Assembly (NCBI GenBank): GCA_049647085.1
Contig: JBARXA010000006.1
Location: 2,670 to 66,669 of the forward strand
Length of the DNA stretch: 64,000 nt
Direction: 5' to 3'
From: Candidatus Humimicrobiia bacterium
Lineage (GTDB): Bacteria > Actinomycetota > Humimicrobiia > JAHJRV01
Shown here in pieces: positions 1,920 to 22,249 of this stretch. Below the pieces are notes generated by a model. The model worked only from the letters and a program-made list of their open reading frames with translations, was not told the DNA's origin and searched no databases. Every line of letters begins with the position of its first letter. Positions within the stretch are counted from its first letter, which is position 1. The position numbers were made by a program, and so were the translations under genes.

Positions 1920-2279
1920 ATGAAGTAAGACAAAAAGATAATTGCAGTTTGTGGACTTAAGTGCAGTGAATGTGAAATTTTTAAAGCAACAGACAATCCT
2001 GAGATAGCACAAAAAATTGCAGATTGGTTTAAAAAAGAAAGAAATAAAGAAGTAAGGATTGAGGACATCCGTTGCTTAGAATGTAAGGGTGATAGGAAGA
2101 AGCACTGGTCTGCGGACTGCTGGATACTTGAATGTTGTGTTGATAAAAAGAGATTGGATTTTTGTAATGAATGTAATGATTTTCCCTGCGATAGGTTAAG
2201 TAAATGGGCTAAAGGAAATAAAAGATACGGCGAAGCTTTAAACAGGCTCATAAAGATTAAGAAAGATGAAAAACAGTAA
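1920..2279 (+). pseudogene. DUF3795-family Cys-rich zinc-binding protein with an in-frame TAA at codon 3 (apparent pseudogene or recoding)
   Basis: Strong RBS AGGAGGAGG 5 nt upstream. Reads ATG AAG TAA GAC AAA AAG ATA ATT GCA GTT TGT GGA... = MK*DKKIIAVCGLKCSECEIF...CLECKG...CNECNDFPCD. The paralog at 17612 reads MKKENKIIAVCGLNCSKCDIF. Confidence 0.6.
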
Positions 2280-2549
2280 AAAACAGAATGTATCCTTTGC
2301 CAAACATGCGTTAGTATATGTGCCAAGGATGCACTGAAATTATCATTTGGATTTGATCTAGGAGATAATGAGTTATTAAGAGAAAGAAGTGATTTAACAT
2401 TTTGGAGGAGAATATAGAAACAACATTGAAAAAACTCCAATAATATTTCTGCATTTAGAAGAAATTGAAAACTTTAAAAAGCTAATTCTTCTAAAATAAG
2501 AATAGTAAAAAGAAAAAATATCATTAAAATTAAGAAAGCGAGGTCCAAA

Positions 2550-6109: not shown

Positions 6110-6349
6110 ATGGTAAGAAAAGTTCTTAGTCTTTCATTACCCCCAAGTTTATATAAAGAATATGAGAAATTGGCAAAAAAAAGTGGCAAGAATAAGAGCC
6201 AGCTTTTCAGAGAAATGATATTTCTTTACGAACAAGAAAAGATGAAAGACGATTTTTATAAAATCCAAAGGAAAATTTCTAAAGTTGTGCGAAAAAAGGG
6301 TATTTATACTGAAGAAGATGTAAAAAAGATTGTCTTTGAGGAGCGCTAA
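6110..6349 (+). CDS. ribbon-helix-helix (CopG/Arc-like) antitoxin
   Basis: 79 aa with an N-terminal beta-strand and helix pattern (VLSLSLPPSLYKEYEKLAKKSGKNKSQLFREMI). Directly upstream of a PIN gene. Confidence 0.5.
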   Translation: MVRKVLSLSLPPSLYKEYEKLAKKSGKNKSQLFREMIFLYEQEKMKDDFYKIQRKISKVVRKKGIYTEEDVKKIVFEER

Positions 6350-6350
6350 A

Positions 6351-6764
6351 GTGCGCGTTGTTTTTGATACAAATGTCTATATTTCAACTTTTGGTATACC
6401 TGGAAGTAAGTCAGAAGATGCTTTCCTTCTCACATTAAAAGAAGAAACGAATCTCTTCATCTCAGTATCAATTCTTACTGAGATAGCTAATGTTCTTAAA
6501 AACAAGTTCAAGTTTTCTAATGAGATTATTCAAACTACACTCAAGTATATTAGCCAAATAGCCAGGTTTATCAAACCCCAGAGGTCAATTAAAGTTTTAA
6601 AAGATGAACCTGATAATCGTATTTTAGAATGTGCTATTGAAGCAAAAGCTGACTTTATTGTAACTGGTGATAAACATATCAAGCAACTTAACGAATATAA
6701 TGGTATAAAAATTGTCTCAGTTTCAGAATTCTTAGAACTTGCCAGCCAATATAAGATTAAATGA
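6351..6764 (+). CDS. PIN-domain toxin (VapC-like)
   Basis: VVFDTNVYIS ... IVTGDKH acidic PIN residues. GTG start with a GAGGAG RBS 7 nt upstream (TTG at 6330 is an alternative). Confidence 0.7.
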   Translation: MRVVFDTNVYISTFGIPGSKSEDAFLLTLKEETNLFISVSILTEIANVLKNKFKFSNEIIQTTLKYISQIARFIKPQRSIKVLKDEPDNRILECAIEAKADFIVTGDKHIKQLNEYNGIKIVSVSEFLELASQYKIK

Positions 6765-13910: not shown

Positions 13911-14816
13911 ATGAACATGAAGACATTTAATTTATTTGAGCCAAATATAGAAGAAATGATAAAAAGAAAAGATGTTATAGGTTTGATAAAAAGCTTAAAA
14001 CATAAGGATTTTGTCGTACGGAGGCATGCAGTATGGGCTCTTGGAAATATAGGGGATACAAGAGGTGTGGAACCTCTAATTCAAGCTTTAAAAGATGAAC
14101 ATGTCTTTGTTCGAGGAGCAGCAGCATTAGCTCTTGGATTAATGAGAGATGTAAGGATATTAGAACCTCTTATTCAGGCTCTCAAAGATACAAATTTGTA
14201 TGTTAAATCAGCAGCAGCATTGGCTCTTGGGAATATAGGAGAACCAGCAGTAAAACCACTAATTAAGATTCTCAAAGATAAAAACTTACATGTTCAAGCA
14301 GCAGCAACAGAAGCCCTTGGAAGAATAGGGGAGCCTGCAGTAGATTCTCTAATTCAAGCTCTGAAAGATGAACATACCTTTGTTAAAGCAGCAGCAGCAT
14401 TAGCTCTTGGATTAATAAAAGATGTAAAAGCAGTAGAACCATTAATTAATGCCCTTAAAGATAAAGATAAAGATGTACGAATAAGTGTAGTAGAAGCTCT
14501 TGGAAAAATAGGGGATTTAAAAGCAGTAGAACCATTAATTCAGACCCTTAAAGATGAGGATGCGGTTGTTAAGAGATACACAGCAGAAGCTCTTGGAAGG
14601 ATAGAGAATGTAATAGCAATTGAACCTCTAATTCAAGTTCTTAAAGATAAAAATTTGTATGTTCAAGCAGCAGCAACAGCTGCTCTTGGAAAGATAGGAG
14701 AACCGGCAATAGAACCTTTAATTCAAGCTCTAAAAAACAAAGATGAGGATCTTCAGAGGGCAGCTAAAAGGATTTTAATTAGAATTAGAGCAAAGAAATC
14801 TAAGAATGATAGGTAA
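13911..14816 (+). CDS. HEAT-repeat protein (PBS-lyase HEAT-like repeats)
   Basis: About nine tandem 31-aa repeats (EPLIQALKD.. ..VR..AA.ALG.IG). Confidence 0.8.
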   Translation: MNMKTFNLFEPNIEEMIKRKDVIGLIKSLKHKDFVVRRHAVWALGNIGDTRGVEPLIQALKDEHVFVRGAAALALGLMRDVRILEPLIQALKDTNLYVKSAAALALGNIGEPAVKPLIKILKDKNLHVQAAATEALGRIGEPAVDSLIQALKDEHTFVKAAAALALGLIKDVKAVEPLINALKDKDKDVRISVVEALGKIGDLKAVEPLIQTLKDEDAVVKRYTAEALGRIENVIAIEPLIQVLKDKNLYVQAAATAALGKIGEPAIEPLIQALKNKDEDLQRAAKRILIRIRAKKSKNDR

Positions 14817-14830
14817 ATTTTTATAAAGAG

Positions 14831-14865
14831 ATTGCCACGCCACCCTCGGTGGCTCGCAACGACAA
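14831..14865 (-). repeat. family-1 REP-like repeat (ATTGCCACGCCACCCTCGGTGGCTCGCAACGACAA)
   Basis: GCCACC-CTC-GGTGGC perfect hairpin. Reverse complement of the 10262 type. Confidence 0.7.
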
Positions 14866-16144: not shown

Positions 16145-16564
16145 TTATTGTCTTATATAGTAATTTACCTCTTTTACGAAATCTGTGTAAAGCTTTATTG
16201 CTTCTTTGATGCTACTGTAAACAATATCATCCTTTATCTCATCATATTCGTGAACTAATCTATTTCTCAAACCAGCCGAGGGAGCTAATTTTTCTCCCAA
16301 TTGCTTTGATATTAATCCAATTTCAATAGCTTTTATAAATGAGTCATAATAATCAGTTGGTGGATTTTTTCCAATCTCAACAATAACATATGAATTTATA
16401 TCAGTTGCTACTTCTGCAAGTAATAAAATTAATCTTTCAACTGCTCTTTTTTTGATAAAATCTCTTTTGTATTCTTCAAAAGTAATGTTAGAAAAAGTTT
16501 TTAATTCCTGTATATAATTTTTTATTTTTAGTAGCTTGCTTAATACAATATCTTTGTTTATCAA
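16145..16564 (-). CDS. hepT: HepT (DUF86) RNase toxin
   Basis: 139 aa with the Rx4HxY motif in RNRLVHEY. Confidence 0.8.
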   Translation of the reverse strand: MINKDIVLSKLLKIKNYIQELKTFSNITFEEYKRDFIKKRAVERLILLLAEVATDINSYVIVEIGKNPPTDYYDSFIKAIEIGLISKQLGEKLAPSAGLRNRLVHEYDEIKDDIVYSSIKEAIKLYTDFVKEVNYYIRQ

Positions 16565-16630
16565 TTAATCCTCTTTATTTAACATAAGTAAACTGCTCTG
16601 TCTTGTGTAAGACGCTTCCCAGTAAAAAAT

Positions 16631-17287
16631 TCAAATTTTATTTTCCAATAAAAAGTTTTTAATACTTTTTTGATATAAATTACGAAATTTTTTTGTATCC
16701 ATATAGTACTTTAATGACTTTATTTTAAAATTATCCAGTATTTCCTTCTCTCTCTCAAATATTGCCGTTCCTTTAGTGGCTACCTCATATTTGAGTATTG
16801 GATTTGCTCGATTAAGAATTACTAAGTCAATATTATCCATCTTTAATAGTCTAACAAGGTCAGAGGAAATATCTAAAAGTAATTCTGAATATTTGTCTTT
16901 ACCTGTATCAGTTTTAAGAAGAATTCCAATATCCAGATCACTTAAAATTGTTGCATTATCAGTAGAGTAGGAACCAAATATAAAGGACGCAATTACCTCA
17001 GGACTGTTTTTAAAATAAATTCTAATTATTGAAAAAAGCTCAGCTTTCTTTTCTTTAGATATTTTTTTAATTTTTTCTACCGTGATTGTTTCTTTAGCTT
17101 CTGAATAAATGAGACCTTTTTTTTGTTCAACTGCCATATCTTTATCTCTTCTACCCATGTATTCTCTTAATGACTCTCTGATTAACTCACTTCTTTTTCT
17201 ATGTTCTTTTTTTGAGAATTCGTCAACCCTTGATAGAAAATCTTTTGGGATGGTTATATTAATTCTCTTAGCCATATTTATCACCAA
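16631..17287 (-). CDS. MNT (minimal nucleotidyltransferase) antitoxin with an N-terminal RHH DNA-binding domain
   Basis: N-terminus MAKRINITIPKDFLSRVDEF...SELIRESLREYM (RHH). GS-x10-DLD NTase motif (GSYSTDNATILSDLDIG). Immediately upstream of hepT. Confidence 0.75.
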   Translation of the reverse strand: MVINMAKRINITIPKDFLSRVDEFSKKEHRKRSELIRESLREYMGRRDKDMAVEQKKGLIYSEAKETITVEKIKKISKEKKAELFSIIRIYFKNSPEVIASFIFGSYSTDNATILSDLDIGILLKTDTGKDKYSELLLDISSDLVRLLKMDNIDLVILNRANPILKYEVATKGTAIFEREKEILDNFKIKSLKYYMDTKKFRNLYQKSIKNFLLENKI

Positions 17288-17611: not shown

Positions 17612-17770
17612 ATGAAAAAAGAAAACAAGATAATTGCAGTTTGTGGTTTAAACTGTAGCAAATGTGACATTTTTGAAGCAACAAATAATTCAAAGGTAGC
17701 ACAGCAAATTTCAGATTGGTTTAAAGAAGAAAAAGATACACTAAAGCTTTGGAGCAACTTAGCAAGATGA
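17612..17770 (+). CDS. DUF3795-family fragment (52 aa), truncated paralog of 1920-2279
   Basis: GGGAG RBS. MKKENKIIAVCGLNCSKCDIFEATNN... then stops after the first CxxC pair. Confidence 0.45.
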   Translation: MKKENKIIAVCGLNCSKCDIFEATNNSKVAQQISDWFKEEKDTLKLWSNLAR

Positions 17771-18174: not shown

Positions 18175-18289
18175 TATTAGTATAAATAAAAGAGGATTAA
18201 ACTAAAATGAACATTCGAAAAATCCTTTTTTAAATAAATGAAATAATATATATTTTTAATAGAAATATTAAATTTTGAGGAAAGATTCA

Positions 18290-19420
18290 ATGTAATATAG
18301 AAAATTAGGAAACACAGGTTTGGATGTTAGTGTAATAGGATTGGGAGCAGAATATCTGTTTTACCAAGATAAAAATACAGTTGTATCTGTAATAAATAAA
18401 GCTATTGATAATGGCATCAACTATATTGATATAGTTTTTAATATTACAAATTTCCTTGATAATATATCTGCTGGAATCAAGGGTAAAAGAGAGAAGATAA
18501 TCCTAACCGGACATTTAGGTTCTGGTGAAAAGAATGGAAAATATTACAAGACTTATAAGGTTAAGCAATGTGAAGAAATATTTAATAAACTGCTTTCTAA
18601 ATTAAACATTGATTATATTGATATAGTCAATTTACATAATGTAAGAAATGAAAATCAGTATAAGAAAGTAATATCCTCAGGTGGTTTATTAGATTTTGCT
18701 CTTCAGTTGAAAGAAGAAGGTTTAGCACGTTTCATTAGTATTAGTACACACGATATTTCAGTCGCAAAAAAGGTAGCAAGAAGTGGAAAAATAGATGTGA
18801 TAATGATTCAGGTAAATTTAGCAAACAATGCAATGGTGGGAAGAAATGAGATGTTAGCTACGTGTGCAAGGAAGGCAATTGGTCTTGTTGCTATGAAGGT
18901 TTTTGCTGGAGGAAAGTTGCTTCAGAGAAATAGAACAGTTAATATTGCTGCCTGGCGAACAGGGGGAATGAGACTTAAGAAAAAGATTTCTCCATCTATA
19001 ACTCCTATTAAATGTATAAGTTATACCCTTTCACAAGTAGGTGTTTGTACAGTTGTACCAGGGGTTAAAAACGTTGATGAGCTAAATGATGCTATTGATT
19101 ATTTAAATGCAACTGATGAAGAAAAAGATTTTTCTGAACTGTTAACTGATTTTAATGAATATATTACAGGAGAATGTGTTTATTGCAATCATTGTCTTCC
19201 ATGCCCATCAGATATAGATATAGGTCAAATGATACGATTATTTGAAGTTGCTAAACAAGAGTTAACTAAAGAAATTCAGAATGAATATAACAAGCTTCCA
19301 GCAAAAGCATCAGATTGTAATGAATGCGGAGTGTGTATAGAAAGATGTCCATTTGAAGTGGATGTCATTTCAAAAATGAAACAAATTAGAAAACTATTTG
19401 AATTAAATAATCAGATATAA
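18290..19420 (+). CDS. aldo/keto reductase fused to a C-terminal 2x[4Fe-4S] ferredoxin domain; ATG at 18290 is followed by an in-frame TAA (alternative TTG start at 18320)
   Basis: GAGGAAAG RBS then ATG TAA TAT AGA AAA TTA GGA AAC ACA GGT TTG = M*YRKLGNTGLDVSVIGLG, the canonical AKR N-terminus. CVYCNHCLPCP and CNECGVCIERCP cluster motifs. Confidence 0.8.
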
Positions 19421-19530
19421 GTCGGTATATTATAATAGGGGATTGCCACGCCACCTTCAGTGGCTCGCAATGACAAACAGGAGCTGTTCAGAATGTCAAG
19501 AATTAAATAATCAGATATAAGTCAGTATAA
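19399..19530 (+). repeat. 30-bp direct duplication (GAATTAAATAATCAGATATAAGTC[G/A]GTATA) flanking an inserted family-1 repeat at 19442-19476
   Basis: Copy 1 at 19399-19430 is the last codons and stop of the AKR gene. Copy 2 is at 19499-19530. There is one mismatch. Confidence 0.7.
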
Positions 19531-19557
19531 TAAAAGATATAAAAGTAAGGAGTAAAA

Positions 19558-19842
19558 ATGGATATAAAGAAATTAATGAAACAAGCAAAGGATTTAAAGA
19601 AATTACAGAAAGAGATATCTAATACTATCTTAGAGAGTGAAGTAAATGGAGCTAAACTATCAATAAGTGGAACTGGTGAAGTTAAAAGTTTTATAATGTC
19701 AGAAGAACTTTATAATAAAGGAAAAAAAGAAATTGAAAAGGCAATATTCAAAGTTATTACTTCATGCCTTAGAAAGCAACTTGATCTGCAAAAAGAGAAA
19801 GCCAAACAAGCATTAAAAGGAATTAATCTTCCAAAAATTTGA
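19558..19842 (+). CDS. ybaB: YbaB/EbfC nucleoid-associated protein
   Basis: 94 aa, MKQAKDLKKLQKEI...GAKLSISGTGEV pattern. Confidence 0.65.
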   Translation: MDIKKLMKQAKDLKKLQKEISNTILESEVNGAKLSISGTGEVKSFIMSEELYNKGKKEIEKAIFKVITSCLRKQLDLQKEKAKQALKGINLPKI

Positions 19843-20156
19843 AATACAACATTTTCAAATCGATTAATAAATTTATAAATAGCTCCCCACTTCTTTTTAG
19901 AATAGAAAAAATGTTAAAGCAAAGGAAAAATATACAAATTAATAGAAATCATTTACATTGGTAAATGGAGATTGAGACAGATGTTTCACCTTCTTCGCAC
20001 AACAAAATTATTCTTCTTCAATAAAATAATTACACTAAACAGACAGGGATTGAGACTTTTAAATAATACTTACTTTTACTTTATAAAATTTTAAGTAATA
20101 AATATTTAATATCATTAATAGCATATTTATAAGTAATATTTATTATATTAAAAAGA

Positions 20157-20360
20157 TTGATTATGAAAGTATCCAACATACTAAAGGTTTTAATTATTAT
20201 AGCTGTTGTGCTATTCATTCTTCACTATTTTGTTGGATTGGATAATTTGATTTCAAAATTAAGTGATATTAACCTGGATTTTTTAACCACAAAATTAAAA
20301 GAATTTATAAATATATTAAAAAATTCATTAACCTGGATAAAGGAATTCTTAAGTGGTTGA
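20157..20360 (+). CDS. small TM-anchored protein, paralog of the N-terminal 90 aa of the thermonuclease at 25985
   Basis: TM helix then LDFLTTKLKEFINILKNSLTWIKEFLSG versus FDFLTNKLNELLTNFKKELSRIKELMTG. Confidence 0.4.
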   Translation: MIMKVSNILKVLIIIAVVLFILHYFVGLDNLISKLSDINLDFLTTKLKEFINILKNSLTWIKEFLSG

Positions 20361-20635
20361 AAGATATTATCAGTAAATAATTATGAAATAGAGTCATTCT
20401 AAAACTAACCACTATAATATTTGAATTTAGAATGAGTTAAAAAAGAAAAGTAATTATTAATTATCGTTACCTTTAATAAGCATATAATTTTAAAATGAAA
20501 ATTACCATAATAATTTGTTAATAATTTACTTTACTCAACAGTATCTTTAATTTGATAGCCAACTTTCACTATTTTCAATTCAAGTATTATAATTTAAGTT
20601 ACAAATTTATATTGATAAAGAGAGAAGTTGAAGTG

Positions 20636-20992
20636 ATGAAGGTAAAACAATTAACAAAATATAACATTATTGACCTTTATAAAATCTGTTGTCCTTATGA
20701 AGAACCTTATTTGGGTGCTATGAAGGAGAGTGCAGAACATTTTGTTAATAAAATGAATAAAAGATGGAAAGGTTTTGTAGCATATAAAGATGATGAAGTA
20801 GTAGGTAGAGCAGAAATTGCTCCAATAGAAGAATGTTTAGTTGCCATTGAAGGCGAAGATGTATATTTTCTTTATTGTCTTTGGGTTAAAAAGGAAGCTA
20901 AAGGTAAGGGTTATGGCAGAAAACTAATGGAGAAGATAGTTGAAGTATCTAAAAATAAAAATGGACTTGCAACTATTATGGTAGAAGGATGA
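20636..20992 (+). CDS. GNAT N-acetyltransferase, N-terminal two-thirds (ends at in-frame TGA)
   Basis: Motif A KGKGYGRKLMEK. The ORF stops ...ATIMVEG*. Confidence 0.6.
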   Translation: MKVKQLTKYNIIDLYKICCPYEEPYLGAMKESAEHFVNKMNKRWKGFVAYKDDEVVGRAEIAPIEECLVAIEGEDVYFLYCLWVKKEAKGKGYGRKLMEKIVEVSKNKNGLATIMVEG

Positions 20993-21397
20993 ATGCCAAG
21001 GAAATTTTTTGAACATTTTGGTTTTGAATTAGTGCAATCAAAAGGAATATCAGATTTGATGTTAAAAAGATTCGATCCTAAAGCTGAAGTAGAATTTAAA
21101 GATGTTAAATTTAATCCAAAAATAATTGATAATAAGGTTAATGTAACTGTGGTTCATTCAAAAAGATGTCCATTTATGACTATAAGCTACAATAAAGCTA
21201 TAGAGGTTGCAAAGAATATATCTGATAGGGTTATAATTACAGAACACATTTTAAAAACGCAGGAAGATATTTTGCGTTATGGTGATGAAAATTTTTATGT
21301 TGATGATGAAGCACCATTTATAGGACCAATAAAGATAGAAAAATTAAAGGATATAATTAAAGAAAAATTAAAAGAGAAATTTAAAAATATAAAATAA
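20993..21397 (+). CDS. continuation ORF carrying the GNAT C-terminal motif (MPRKFFEHFGFEL) plus a 120-aa extension; same frame as 20636-20992
   Basis: ATG directly abuts TGA (GGA TGA ATG). FFEHFGFEL matches the GNAT beta6/alpha4 motif FYEKLGF. Confidence 0.5.
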   Translation: MPRKFFEHFGFELVQSKGISDLMLKRFDPKAEVEFKDVKFNPKIIDNKVNVTVVHSKRCPFMTISYNKAIEVAKNISDRVIITEHILKTQEDILRYGDENFYVDDEAPFIGPIKIEKLKDIIKEKLKEKFKNIK

Positions 21398-22024
21398 ATT
21401 AAAAAAGAAATATAGAGGAAAGTTTAAGAATGCTTTTTCACGCTGGTAGTGATAAAGACGATACCAGCCAAAAAAGCTATTGTTTTCATTAATGTCTTTT
21501 ATCCTTGGGATCCTAAAATTAAAAATATAATATAGAATATCAGGCTTAATGTTTATGATAGTCAATACAAAATTTACTATAAAAAGTTTATAAATGCTAT
21601 TCTGATTAGACTATTTAATATTATTTATAAATTGATTGGAAGAAAAATGAAAAGGAAAAAATTATATTATTTATTTTAAATTTTGGACTCTTTTATAGAG
21701 GGATCTTTAATGTAGATATTGGGAAATAATGGACAAAAAATGATATACAAAATAATTGATATAACCAAGAAAAAAGAATATGAAAAATATCTTTACTAAT
21801 GTGGTTACCTATTAAAAAAAATGCAGGAATGCCTATTTGGGATACTGAGGTGTTATTGCAAGGAGTAGATTTTTGCTTAGCACATCCCCTTTATCATCCT
21901 CAAAGTATTAAATTTGATCGTATCTTTGAAAAGATATGAAATTGAAATTCCTACAAGTTTGGCCATCAGGTTTGACCAATCCTTCTTTAGTGTTTGAGAA
22001 ACTTAGGATTCAAGGAGATTAAAT

Positions 22025-22249
22025 ATGGGCATCAATATTTTTCCAATTCGTCTGTGGGTTGACCATTGCTATATAATCCAGGACAAAGGGGTGATTATGA
22101 TTGATTGTGGGTCACCCAAGAAAGCAAAAGCCTTTAAAAAAGCCATTGAAAGAATCCATATTAAACCTGATGAAATTCAGCTAATCGTTATAACACATGG
22201 GCATATGGATCATATAAGATCAGCTAATGACATCAAAGGGTTGACGTAG
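22025..22249 (+). pseudogene. MBL-fold metallo-hydrolase, truncated after 74 codons at a repeat boundary
   Basis: HGHMDH (HxHxDH) motif then stop. The TAG stop is the first bases of the family-2 repeat GTAGAAATAATTGACC. Confidence 0.55.

Follow-up and report, generated by a model that had tools for sequence, protein, structure and literature searches.

Proteins of the aldo/keto reductase (AKR) fold have an N-terminal hairpin that caps the bottom of the barrel, and those members that also carry 4Fe-4S motifs appear in JGI annotation under the name 'predicted aldo/keto reductase-like oxidoreductase'. Start codons that are followed almost at once by a stop codon have been described in E. coli, where ribosomes bind at these start-stop sites and expression is mildly attenuated (bioRxiv 10.1101/520783). 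Here we examine a 64-kb stretch of DNA, referred to throughout as the window, from an uncultured sediment actinobacterial lineage (Ca. Humimicrobiia, a class of Actinomycetota), in which the conserved N-terminus of an AKR/Fe-S oxidoreductase stands directly behind the codons ATG TAA. Based on comparison with syntenic contigs from sister strains, we consider it probable, and with good confidence, that this arrangement is a genuine lineage-specific nonsense mutation, which would leave the allele with lost or strongly reduced function, in an accessory gene that is dispensable and in early pseudogenisation.

Anatomy of the AKR start

The leader and start of the gene read TGAGGAAAGATTCA ATG TAA TAT AGA AAA TTA GGA AAC ACA GGT TTG GAT GTT AGT in the window, with the GAGGA core of the Shine-Dalgarno (SD) sequence at 18277-81 forming a duplex of -5.6 kcal/mol with the canonical anti-SD, against a median of -6.3 for the genes of the window (Table 1). 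The initial annotation found codon 2 to be TAA, with an AKR N-terminus following in frame, and it offered no mechanism; both its coordinates and its letters agree with ours; the segment YRKLGNTGLDVSVIG matches the relatives exactly. Its sketch of the leader, GAGGAAAG-ATG, omitted the 5-nt spacer ATTCA and was otherwise right in sequence and coordinates, and the motif that it proposed, [M][K/E]YRKLGxTGL, holds for the YRKLG segment while residue 2 is Gln in the closest relatives and not K/E. It further stated that annotation falls back to the TTG at 18320 and drops the conserved segment, which the public record bears out: the NCBI protein MGB3345838.1 (P0001), from a Candidatus Humimicrobiia bacterium MAG, is identical to the locus and consists of that 366-aa TTG product, beginning MDVSVIG. 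A strong-SD start with a stop within three codons and a long in-frame ORF behind it occurs twice in the window, at 18290 and at 1920-1928, and the ATG-TAA at the AKR start exceeds chance expectation.

Table 1. Positions of the AKR locus, of the two companion interrupted genes and of further features in the window.
Feature	Position	Strand	Remarks
Shine-Dalgarno region of the ancestral AKR start	18277..18284	+	GAGGAAAG; intact; same in 10 relatives
Ancestral AKR ATG start	18290..18292	+	P0002-P0004 (376 aa, syntenic contigs) begin here
TAA, AKR codon 2	18293..18295	+	From CAA (Gln), C->T at 18293
Orphaned codons 3-10, YRKLGNTG	18296..18319	+	Strand 1 and turn of the N-terminal beta-hairpin; unreachable from start codons
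Fortuitous SD-like AGGA	18307..18310	+	From Leu-Gly codons; 9 nt 5' of TTG 18320
Annotated AKR ORF, 366 aa, TTG start	18320..19420	+	AKR barrel and C-terminal 2x[4Fe-4S]; without the first 10 residues
DUF3795 gene, ATG AAG TAA	1920..2279; stop 1926-1928	+	PF12675; ancestral CAA; very strong SD
GNAT fusion gene, 253 aa	20636..21397; TGA 20990-20992	+	Stop at codon 119, ancestral TGG (Trp119)
GC-rich palindromic mini-element	19436-19499, 14830-14865	+	Core GAGATTGCCACGCCACCNTCNGTGGCTCGCAATGACA; just after gene ends
52-aa ORF	17612-17770	+	Upstream of MoaE
c-di-AMP riboswitch, RF00379	13735-13865	+	104 bits, full length; upstream of 301-aa ORF 13911..14816
Toxin-antitoxin pair, RHH antitoxin and PIN toxin	6110-6764	+
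Toxin-antitoxin pair, MNT and HepT	16145-17287	-
Open stretch after the DUF3795 stop	2280-2415	+	Same frame, 45 codons; no start codon

Between its TTG (18320-18322) and its terminator (TAA, 19418-19420) the annotated ORF is in good order. Residues 16-283 match positions 2-285 of the 291-position profile PF00248 with 97.2 bits (cut-off 24), Fer4 families match the C-terminal domain (Fer4_17, 23.2 bits), and both CxxCxxCxxxCP motifs are present, which makes the protein an AKR + 4Fe-4S dicluster fusion. Across 53 homologs, C296/299/302/305 with P306 and C343/346/349/353 with P354 are invariant, and D47, K87 and H116, candidate members of the catalytic tetrad (Asp-Tyr-Lys-His), are invariant or nearly so (alignment A2). 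The translated N-terminal hairpin (x-Y/F-R-x-L-G-x-T-G-L-x-V-S) is what the ORF lacks, as the TAA separates this motif from the ATG. The truncation escapes notice because the Pfam AKR model begins after the lost strand, and the 'intact' 366-aa AKR database entry is an artefact of longest-ORF gene calling.

The segment that is cut off is strongly conserved. YRKLGNTG is kept in 118 of the 120 best homologs, and M1, R4, G7 and T9 are each at least 90% conserved in a set of 53 homologs that reaches down to ~51% identity. In the AF2 model of the full-length relative P0002 (pLDDT 93.3 overall and 96 over residues 1-10), strand 3-5 is paired against strand 12-14 to form the N-terminal hairpin, and a solved L-galactose dehydrogenase (9w6y) aligns from its own N-terminus, MEYRKLGNTGLDVSV.

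Downstream of the stop, a search of 18296..18319 for an in-frame ATG, GTG, TTG or one-off near-cognate codon found none. The AGGA in front of the TTG at 18320 has a duplex energy of -4.2 kcal/mol, which beats ~80% of random start-like triplets and ranks among the weakest quarter or so of real window genes (upper quartile -3.75), and RNA structure prediction around the AKR start gave no significant fold (z = -0.8). Because an AGGA lies 9 nt upstream and the mRNA is unstructured, restart at the TTG is possible in principle, and as judged from these letters the weakly SD-preceded TTG could still yield some protein lacking the first ten residues.

Origin of the codon 2 stop

The closest relatives of the truncated protein, P0002, P0003 and P0004 (95%, 93% and 87% identity), are exactly 10 residues longer (376 aa), and the first two share the N-terminus MQYRKLGNTGLDVSVIG. 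Their contigs are syntenic with the window in the order 398-aa gene, HepT, MNT, DUF3795 remnant, MoaE and AKR. In a nucleotide alignment of the start region (A1), ten contigs from at least nine samples (L002-L011) read ATG CAA TAT, while the window and the Logan assembly of SRR27456519 (L001, 100% identical) read ATG TAA TAT; the 115-nt leader is otherwise identical across the alignment, with single-base differences only in L011. CAA at codon 2 is also found in L014 and L015. Since the relatives read ATG CAA TAT, the TAA is a single C->T transition at 18293 that changes Gln2 to a stop.

By scanning with a pattern in which the mutated base was left free, we recovered the same TAA in JGI contig Ga0209986_10061024 (sample 3300024433; L012/L016). 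Over 2,182 nt its identity to the window is 99.54%, with 7 of the 10 mismatches confined to one 22-nt patch. It also shares three further derived markers of the window haplotype: T20A, a codon 179 that has changed synonymously, and 64 nt inserted beyond the end of the gene. The allele is found in at least two samples, which are unrelated. A pattern scan of genome contigs for the start region returned no match, and an exact-protein look-up of the neighbouring 206-aa LysE-like protein likewise returned no match. On the evidence of these assemblies, the codon 2 TAA is a real, lineage-specific nonsense change.

Allelic variation and selection on the AKR gene

We next compared the locus among strains whose flanking DNA is at least 96% identical, and in these assemblies the AKR gene is present in at least five allelic states. 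It is intact in L002-L011, carries the codon 2 stop (Q2*) in the window, L001 and L012, and is interrupted by Y271* (TAT->TAA) in L015. In L014 a 1-nt deletion falls in the second Cys motif and is accompanied by 13 N : 3 S private changes, and in L045 (Logan SRR14803100) the gene and its leader are replaced by 160 unrelated nt (1222-1381, aligned against window 18178-19516). Because sister strains carry Y271*, a 1-nt deletion and a complete deletion, we take the AKR gene to be dispensable and in the course of being lost. The neighbourhood as a whole is a hotspot of presence/absence variation, and in the L002/L005 lineage ~2.8 kb downstream of the gene are missing (window 19436-22246).

Pooled over the disrupted AKR alleles, private tip substitutions number 20 N : 4 S; the branch of the intact L011 has 15 N : 24 S (p=0.0006 for the comparison) and flanking genes have 43:29 (p=0.047). 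Taken in full, the branch of the window carries 7 N : 11 S, a dN/dS of ~0.17 that reflects purifying selection. We considered the dN/dS of this branch as a sign of decay and rejected it, as the 7 N : 11 S ratio points in the opposite direction and the tip N:S of flanking genes is high anyway (21:17 and 12:7); because flanking genes share this property, dN/dS alone cannot date or grade the lesion. The window and L012 copies differ at two AKR positions, both missense, so that the changes behind the stop in L012 come to 2 missense and 0 synonymous, and the remaining 374 codons are intact in both copies. With purifying selection on its branch, the window allele bears no positive sign of decay, in a comparison that has no power with only 2-3 post-stop substitutions. 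From the 7 N : 11 S of the window branch we conclude that its lineage was under constraint until recently and that the stop is young. The main evidence for dispensability is the multiplicity of lesions and not dN/dS. A sense codon one substitution away in relatives and signs of dispensability or relaxed constraint are two properties that the allele shares with polymorphic nonsense pseudogenes.

Companion interrupted genes

The initial annotation described the AKR start as the second case of its kind within 20 kb, and the other one exists: a DUF3795 gene that begins ATG AAG TAA. Its leader, AGGAGGAGG, has an SD of -13.1, and 116 open codons follow ATG AAG TAA. The ortholog P0125 (88% identity) begins MKQENK and reads ATG AAG CAA; at the nucleotide level, codon 3 is CAA in L037 and TAA in L038-L042, which are all five of the sister contigs that reach the site and come from five samples. 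The next canonical start is the TTG at 2154, 76 codons downstream, and the only candidates nearer the stop are ATA 1938 and ATT 1941, a site at which some homologs have their N-terminus (MIAVCGL). In two of the sister assemblies (L038 and L040) the DUF3795 gene is not called and a spurious 183-aa antisense ORF is called in its place. That the ORF is unchanged in the five sister contigs was considered as evidence of selection and set aside; with a local identity of at least 99.7%, no more than about one change would be expected among these contigs, and its absence is uninformative. Behind the DUF3795 terminator, the same frame stays open and includes a ferredoxin-like CILCQTCVSICAKDA motif, and this open stretch may be another gene remnant. 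An ATG-TAA at 6318-6323 that we considered as a candidate for the other case did not hold up: it lies in another frame inside the RHH antitoxin ORF 6110..6349, has a poor SD (-3.3) and is a frame coincidence.

A third interruption lies downstream of the AKR gene, in a GNAT fusion gene. Only translation through the TGA gives a full match to the GNAT profile (14-116 of 116), five of five relatives have VEGWMP at this position, and L045 has TGG; gene callers would report the split gene as two genes of 146 and 134 aa. Scanning the window for mid-gene stops returned mostly antisense shadow ORFs, and the TGA at 20990 marks the only real split gene. TAG 57179, a further candidate, was rejected and divides two ordinary adjacent genes.

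All three stops are GC->AT transitions (CAA->TAA twice and TGG->TGA once). Both TAAs occupy the 5'-most site at which a transition can create a stop, one of 17 such targets in the AKR gene and one of 11 in the DUF3795 gene, a post hoc comparison that is biased by how the cases were found. Taken post hoc, this position is not what pure neutral loss would predict, and it would fit early stops that are the nulls of lowest cost, or stops that are tolerated thanks to a restart downstream. An extension of the latter idea holds that start-proximal TAAs are tolerated or favoured as one-step 'dimmer' alleles, in which a strong SD would load ribosomes that stop after 1-2 codons and partly reinitiate; judging from the sequence, the putative restart sites would be TTG 18320 in the AKR gene and ATA 1938 or ATT 1941 in the DUF3795 gene. 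If true, this would account for the location of both TAAs at the 5'-most target (1/17 x 1/11) and for the occurrence of the DUF3795 TAA in each of the six strains sampled. We regard it as distinctly improbable.

Other features of the window

The GC-rich mini-element occurs in two copies, each flanked by an imperfect 31-40-nt duplication of adjacent sequence that includes the 3' end of the upstream gene. The copy behind the AKR gene is the 64-nt insertion specific to the TAA lineage, and its site is empty in L011, L014, L015 and L002. MAGs from several phyla contain its 28-nt core: one Actinomycetes MAG has ~10 copies, and the core also occurs in Chloroflexia, Nitrospirae and Schekmanbacteria; a search for the element in Rfam gave no match. 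It looks REP/MITE-like, a resemblance from which the long flanking duplications do not follow.

The 52-aa ORF that precedes MoaE is paralogous to the DUF3795 gene at 1920 but truncated, with ~80% nucleotide identity to it over 137 nt and a match to PF12675 that covers the first 28 positions only. Its counterpart in some sister strains is 67 aa long, and it is probably a decayed gene remnant. The c-di-AMP riboswitch was the only match in an Rfam scan of the window. In the first of the two toxin-antitoxin pairs, a 79-aa ORF encodes the RHH antitoxin and the PIN gene starts at a GTG (6351) just after the antitoxin stop, with an SD of -7.8.

Discussion

Several other explanations for the ATG TAA were weighed. 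The stop could have arisen by an error in sequencing or assembly, or be a minor variant that ended up in the consensus, in an organism that really has CAA; the allele is known from assemblies alone, and C->T is the typical damage artefact in sediment DNA. Against this, the same TAA is present in three assemblies produced by different pipelines (NCBI MAG, Logan and JGI) from at least two projects, where it is linked to T20A, the synonymous codon 179 change and the 64-nt insertion, and an error in the consensus is consequently very unlikely. Extremely improbable, in our estimation, is the reading by which the stops are recoded or read through in a programmed manner, TAA as Gln and TGA as Trp, such that full-length proteins are made. 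Natural suppressors are usually near-cognate tRNA-Gln or tRNA-Trp, and all three in-frame stops align with residues of known reassignments (TAA->Gln twice and TGA->Trp once); but CAA and TGG are precisely the codons that become stops by one transition. Mutation alone thus predicts the match, and recoding is not needed to account for it. The stops are moreover derived and not conserved, as relatives encode CAA or TGG. Among the 52 long ORFs of the window TAA terminates 39 and TGA 5, at the C-termini of their homologs, and the AKR gene, too, has a TAA terminator at the point where its homologs end. Reassignment would leave TAA unused as a terminator and spread in-frame TAAs through conserved genes, whereas a scan across the window found only the cases described above. 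The only tRNA in the 64 kb, where the search was made, is tRNA-Ser(GGA), and this stretch holds no suppressor tRNA. A frameshift or hop around the TAA was also rejected, as the +1 and -1 frames stop within 3-5 codons and a matching landing codon for fMet-tRNA is absent.

The two remaining alternatives accept the stop and give it a use. We give next to no credence to a conserved regulatory start-stop element that governs the downstream ORF: a strong SD, an ATG and an immediate stop do reproduce the anatomy of E. coli start-stops (10.1101/520783), but at least 12 related contigs have CAA at the site and encode the full-length protein, and the element is one step from an ordinary start. The ATG-TAA arrangement was not found among the 120 best homologs and is absent in all intact relatives, and because relatives lack it we do not take the TAA for a conserved device. 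We consider it unlikely, in turn, that the gene is down-tuned and not dead, with a functional protein lacking ten residues made by reinitiation at TTG 18320 after the start-stop. Termination followed by reinitiation over short distances is established bacterial biology, and the AGGA in front of the TTG, the lack of significant local RNA structure, the intact ORF in two diverged TAA copies and the spread of the allele to at least two samples would all fit such a product. So would the ribosome occupancy and modest attenuation of expression at E. coli start-stops (10.1101/520783). Nonetheless, the deleted strand is present in nearly all homologs, with R4, G7 and T9 among its most conserved residues, and it pairs with strand 12-14 in the model; the gene is dispensable, given one deletion and two other truncations in sister strains; and the sole changes after the stop are two missense substitutions.

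We therefore favour a recent nonsense mutation in a gene that is being lost. According to this explanation, a C->T change at 18293 turned codon 2 of a 376-codon AKR/Fe-S oxidoreductase gene from CAA (Gln) into TAA. As the ancestral SD and ATG are normal, ribosomes should load and terminate at once: they would meet the TAA in the A site, in the common context TAA-T (13 of the 52 long ORFs), and release without having formed a peptide bond, so that the full-length enzyme would be lost. At most a minority of ribosomes would restart 27 nt downstream at TTG 18320, where the weak, accidental SD suggests low efficiency, and in their product the hairpin at the barrel bottom would be missing its first beta-strand and turn. 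Function would presumably be lost as a result.

Q2* is an ordinary segregating nonsense polymorphism that gene calling masks. As a textbook polymorphism of this type that affects a dispensable accessory gene, it has little biological weight. It nevertheless shows cleanly how a very early nonsense mutation goes unseen when gene callers move the start to an internal TTG, with the public record showing a 366-aa 'aldo/keto reductase' that bears no pseudogene flag, and it offers a small but well-resolved snapshot of gene loss in an uncultured lineage. Five allelic states of one gene, together with three GC->AT nonsense hits in 64 kb, are consistent with mutation-driven erosion of accessory genes.

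Among known systems, the allele most resembles polymorphic nonsense alleles and nascent pseudogenes, in that the stop is derived, arose by one GC->AT transition, is confined to a sub-lineage and coexists with intact, otherwise truncated and deleted alleles while the rest of its ORF is intact. It departs from typical nascent pseudogenes in the extreme position of the stop at codon 2, which would leave no truncated polypeptide, and in being silently re-annotated from an internal TTG. With bacterial start-stops as found by Ribo-RET (Meydan et al. 2019; 10.1101/520783) it shares an SD, a start and an immediate stop, at which a ribosome could initiate and terminate without elongation; the E. coli sites are out of frame, lie inside genes and were detected by ribosome occupancy, whereas the AKR ATG-TAA is the gene's own start, in frame, mutational in origin, unconserved and known from sequence. 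As a protein, the product is like AKRs with a C-terminal 4Fe-4S domain (PF00248 + Fer4), having the barrel and both cysteine motifs intact and 95% identity to full-length relatives, and unlike them its start, including strand 1 of the hairpin, is cut off. Finally, an early stop with an in-frame TTG and SD-like sequence within ~30 nt recalls the classical cases of reinitiation in lacI and T4 rIIB; in the AKR gene, unlike in these, restart is a sequence-level possibility and its product would be missing a conserved structural element.
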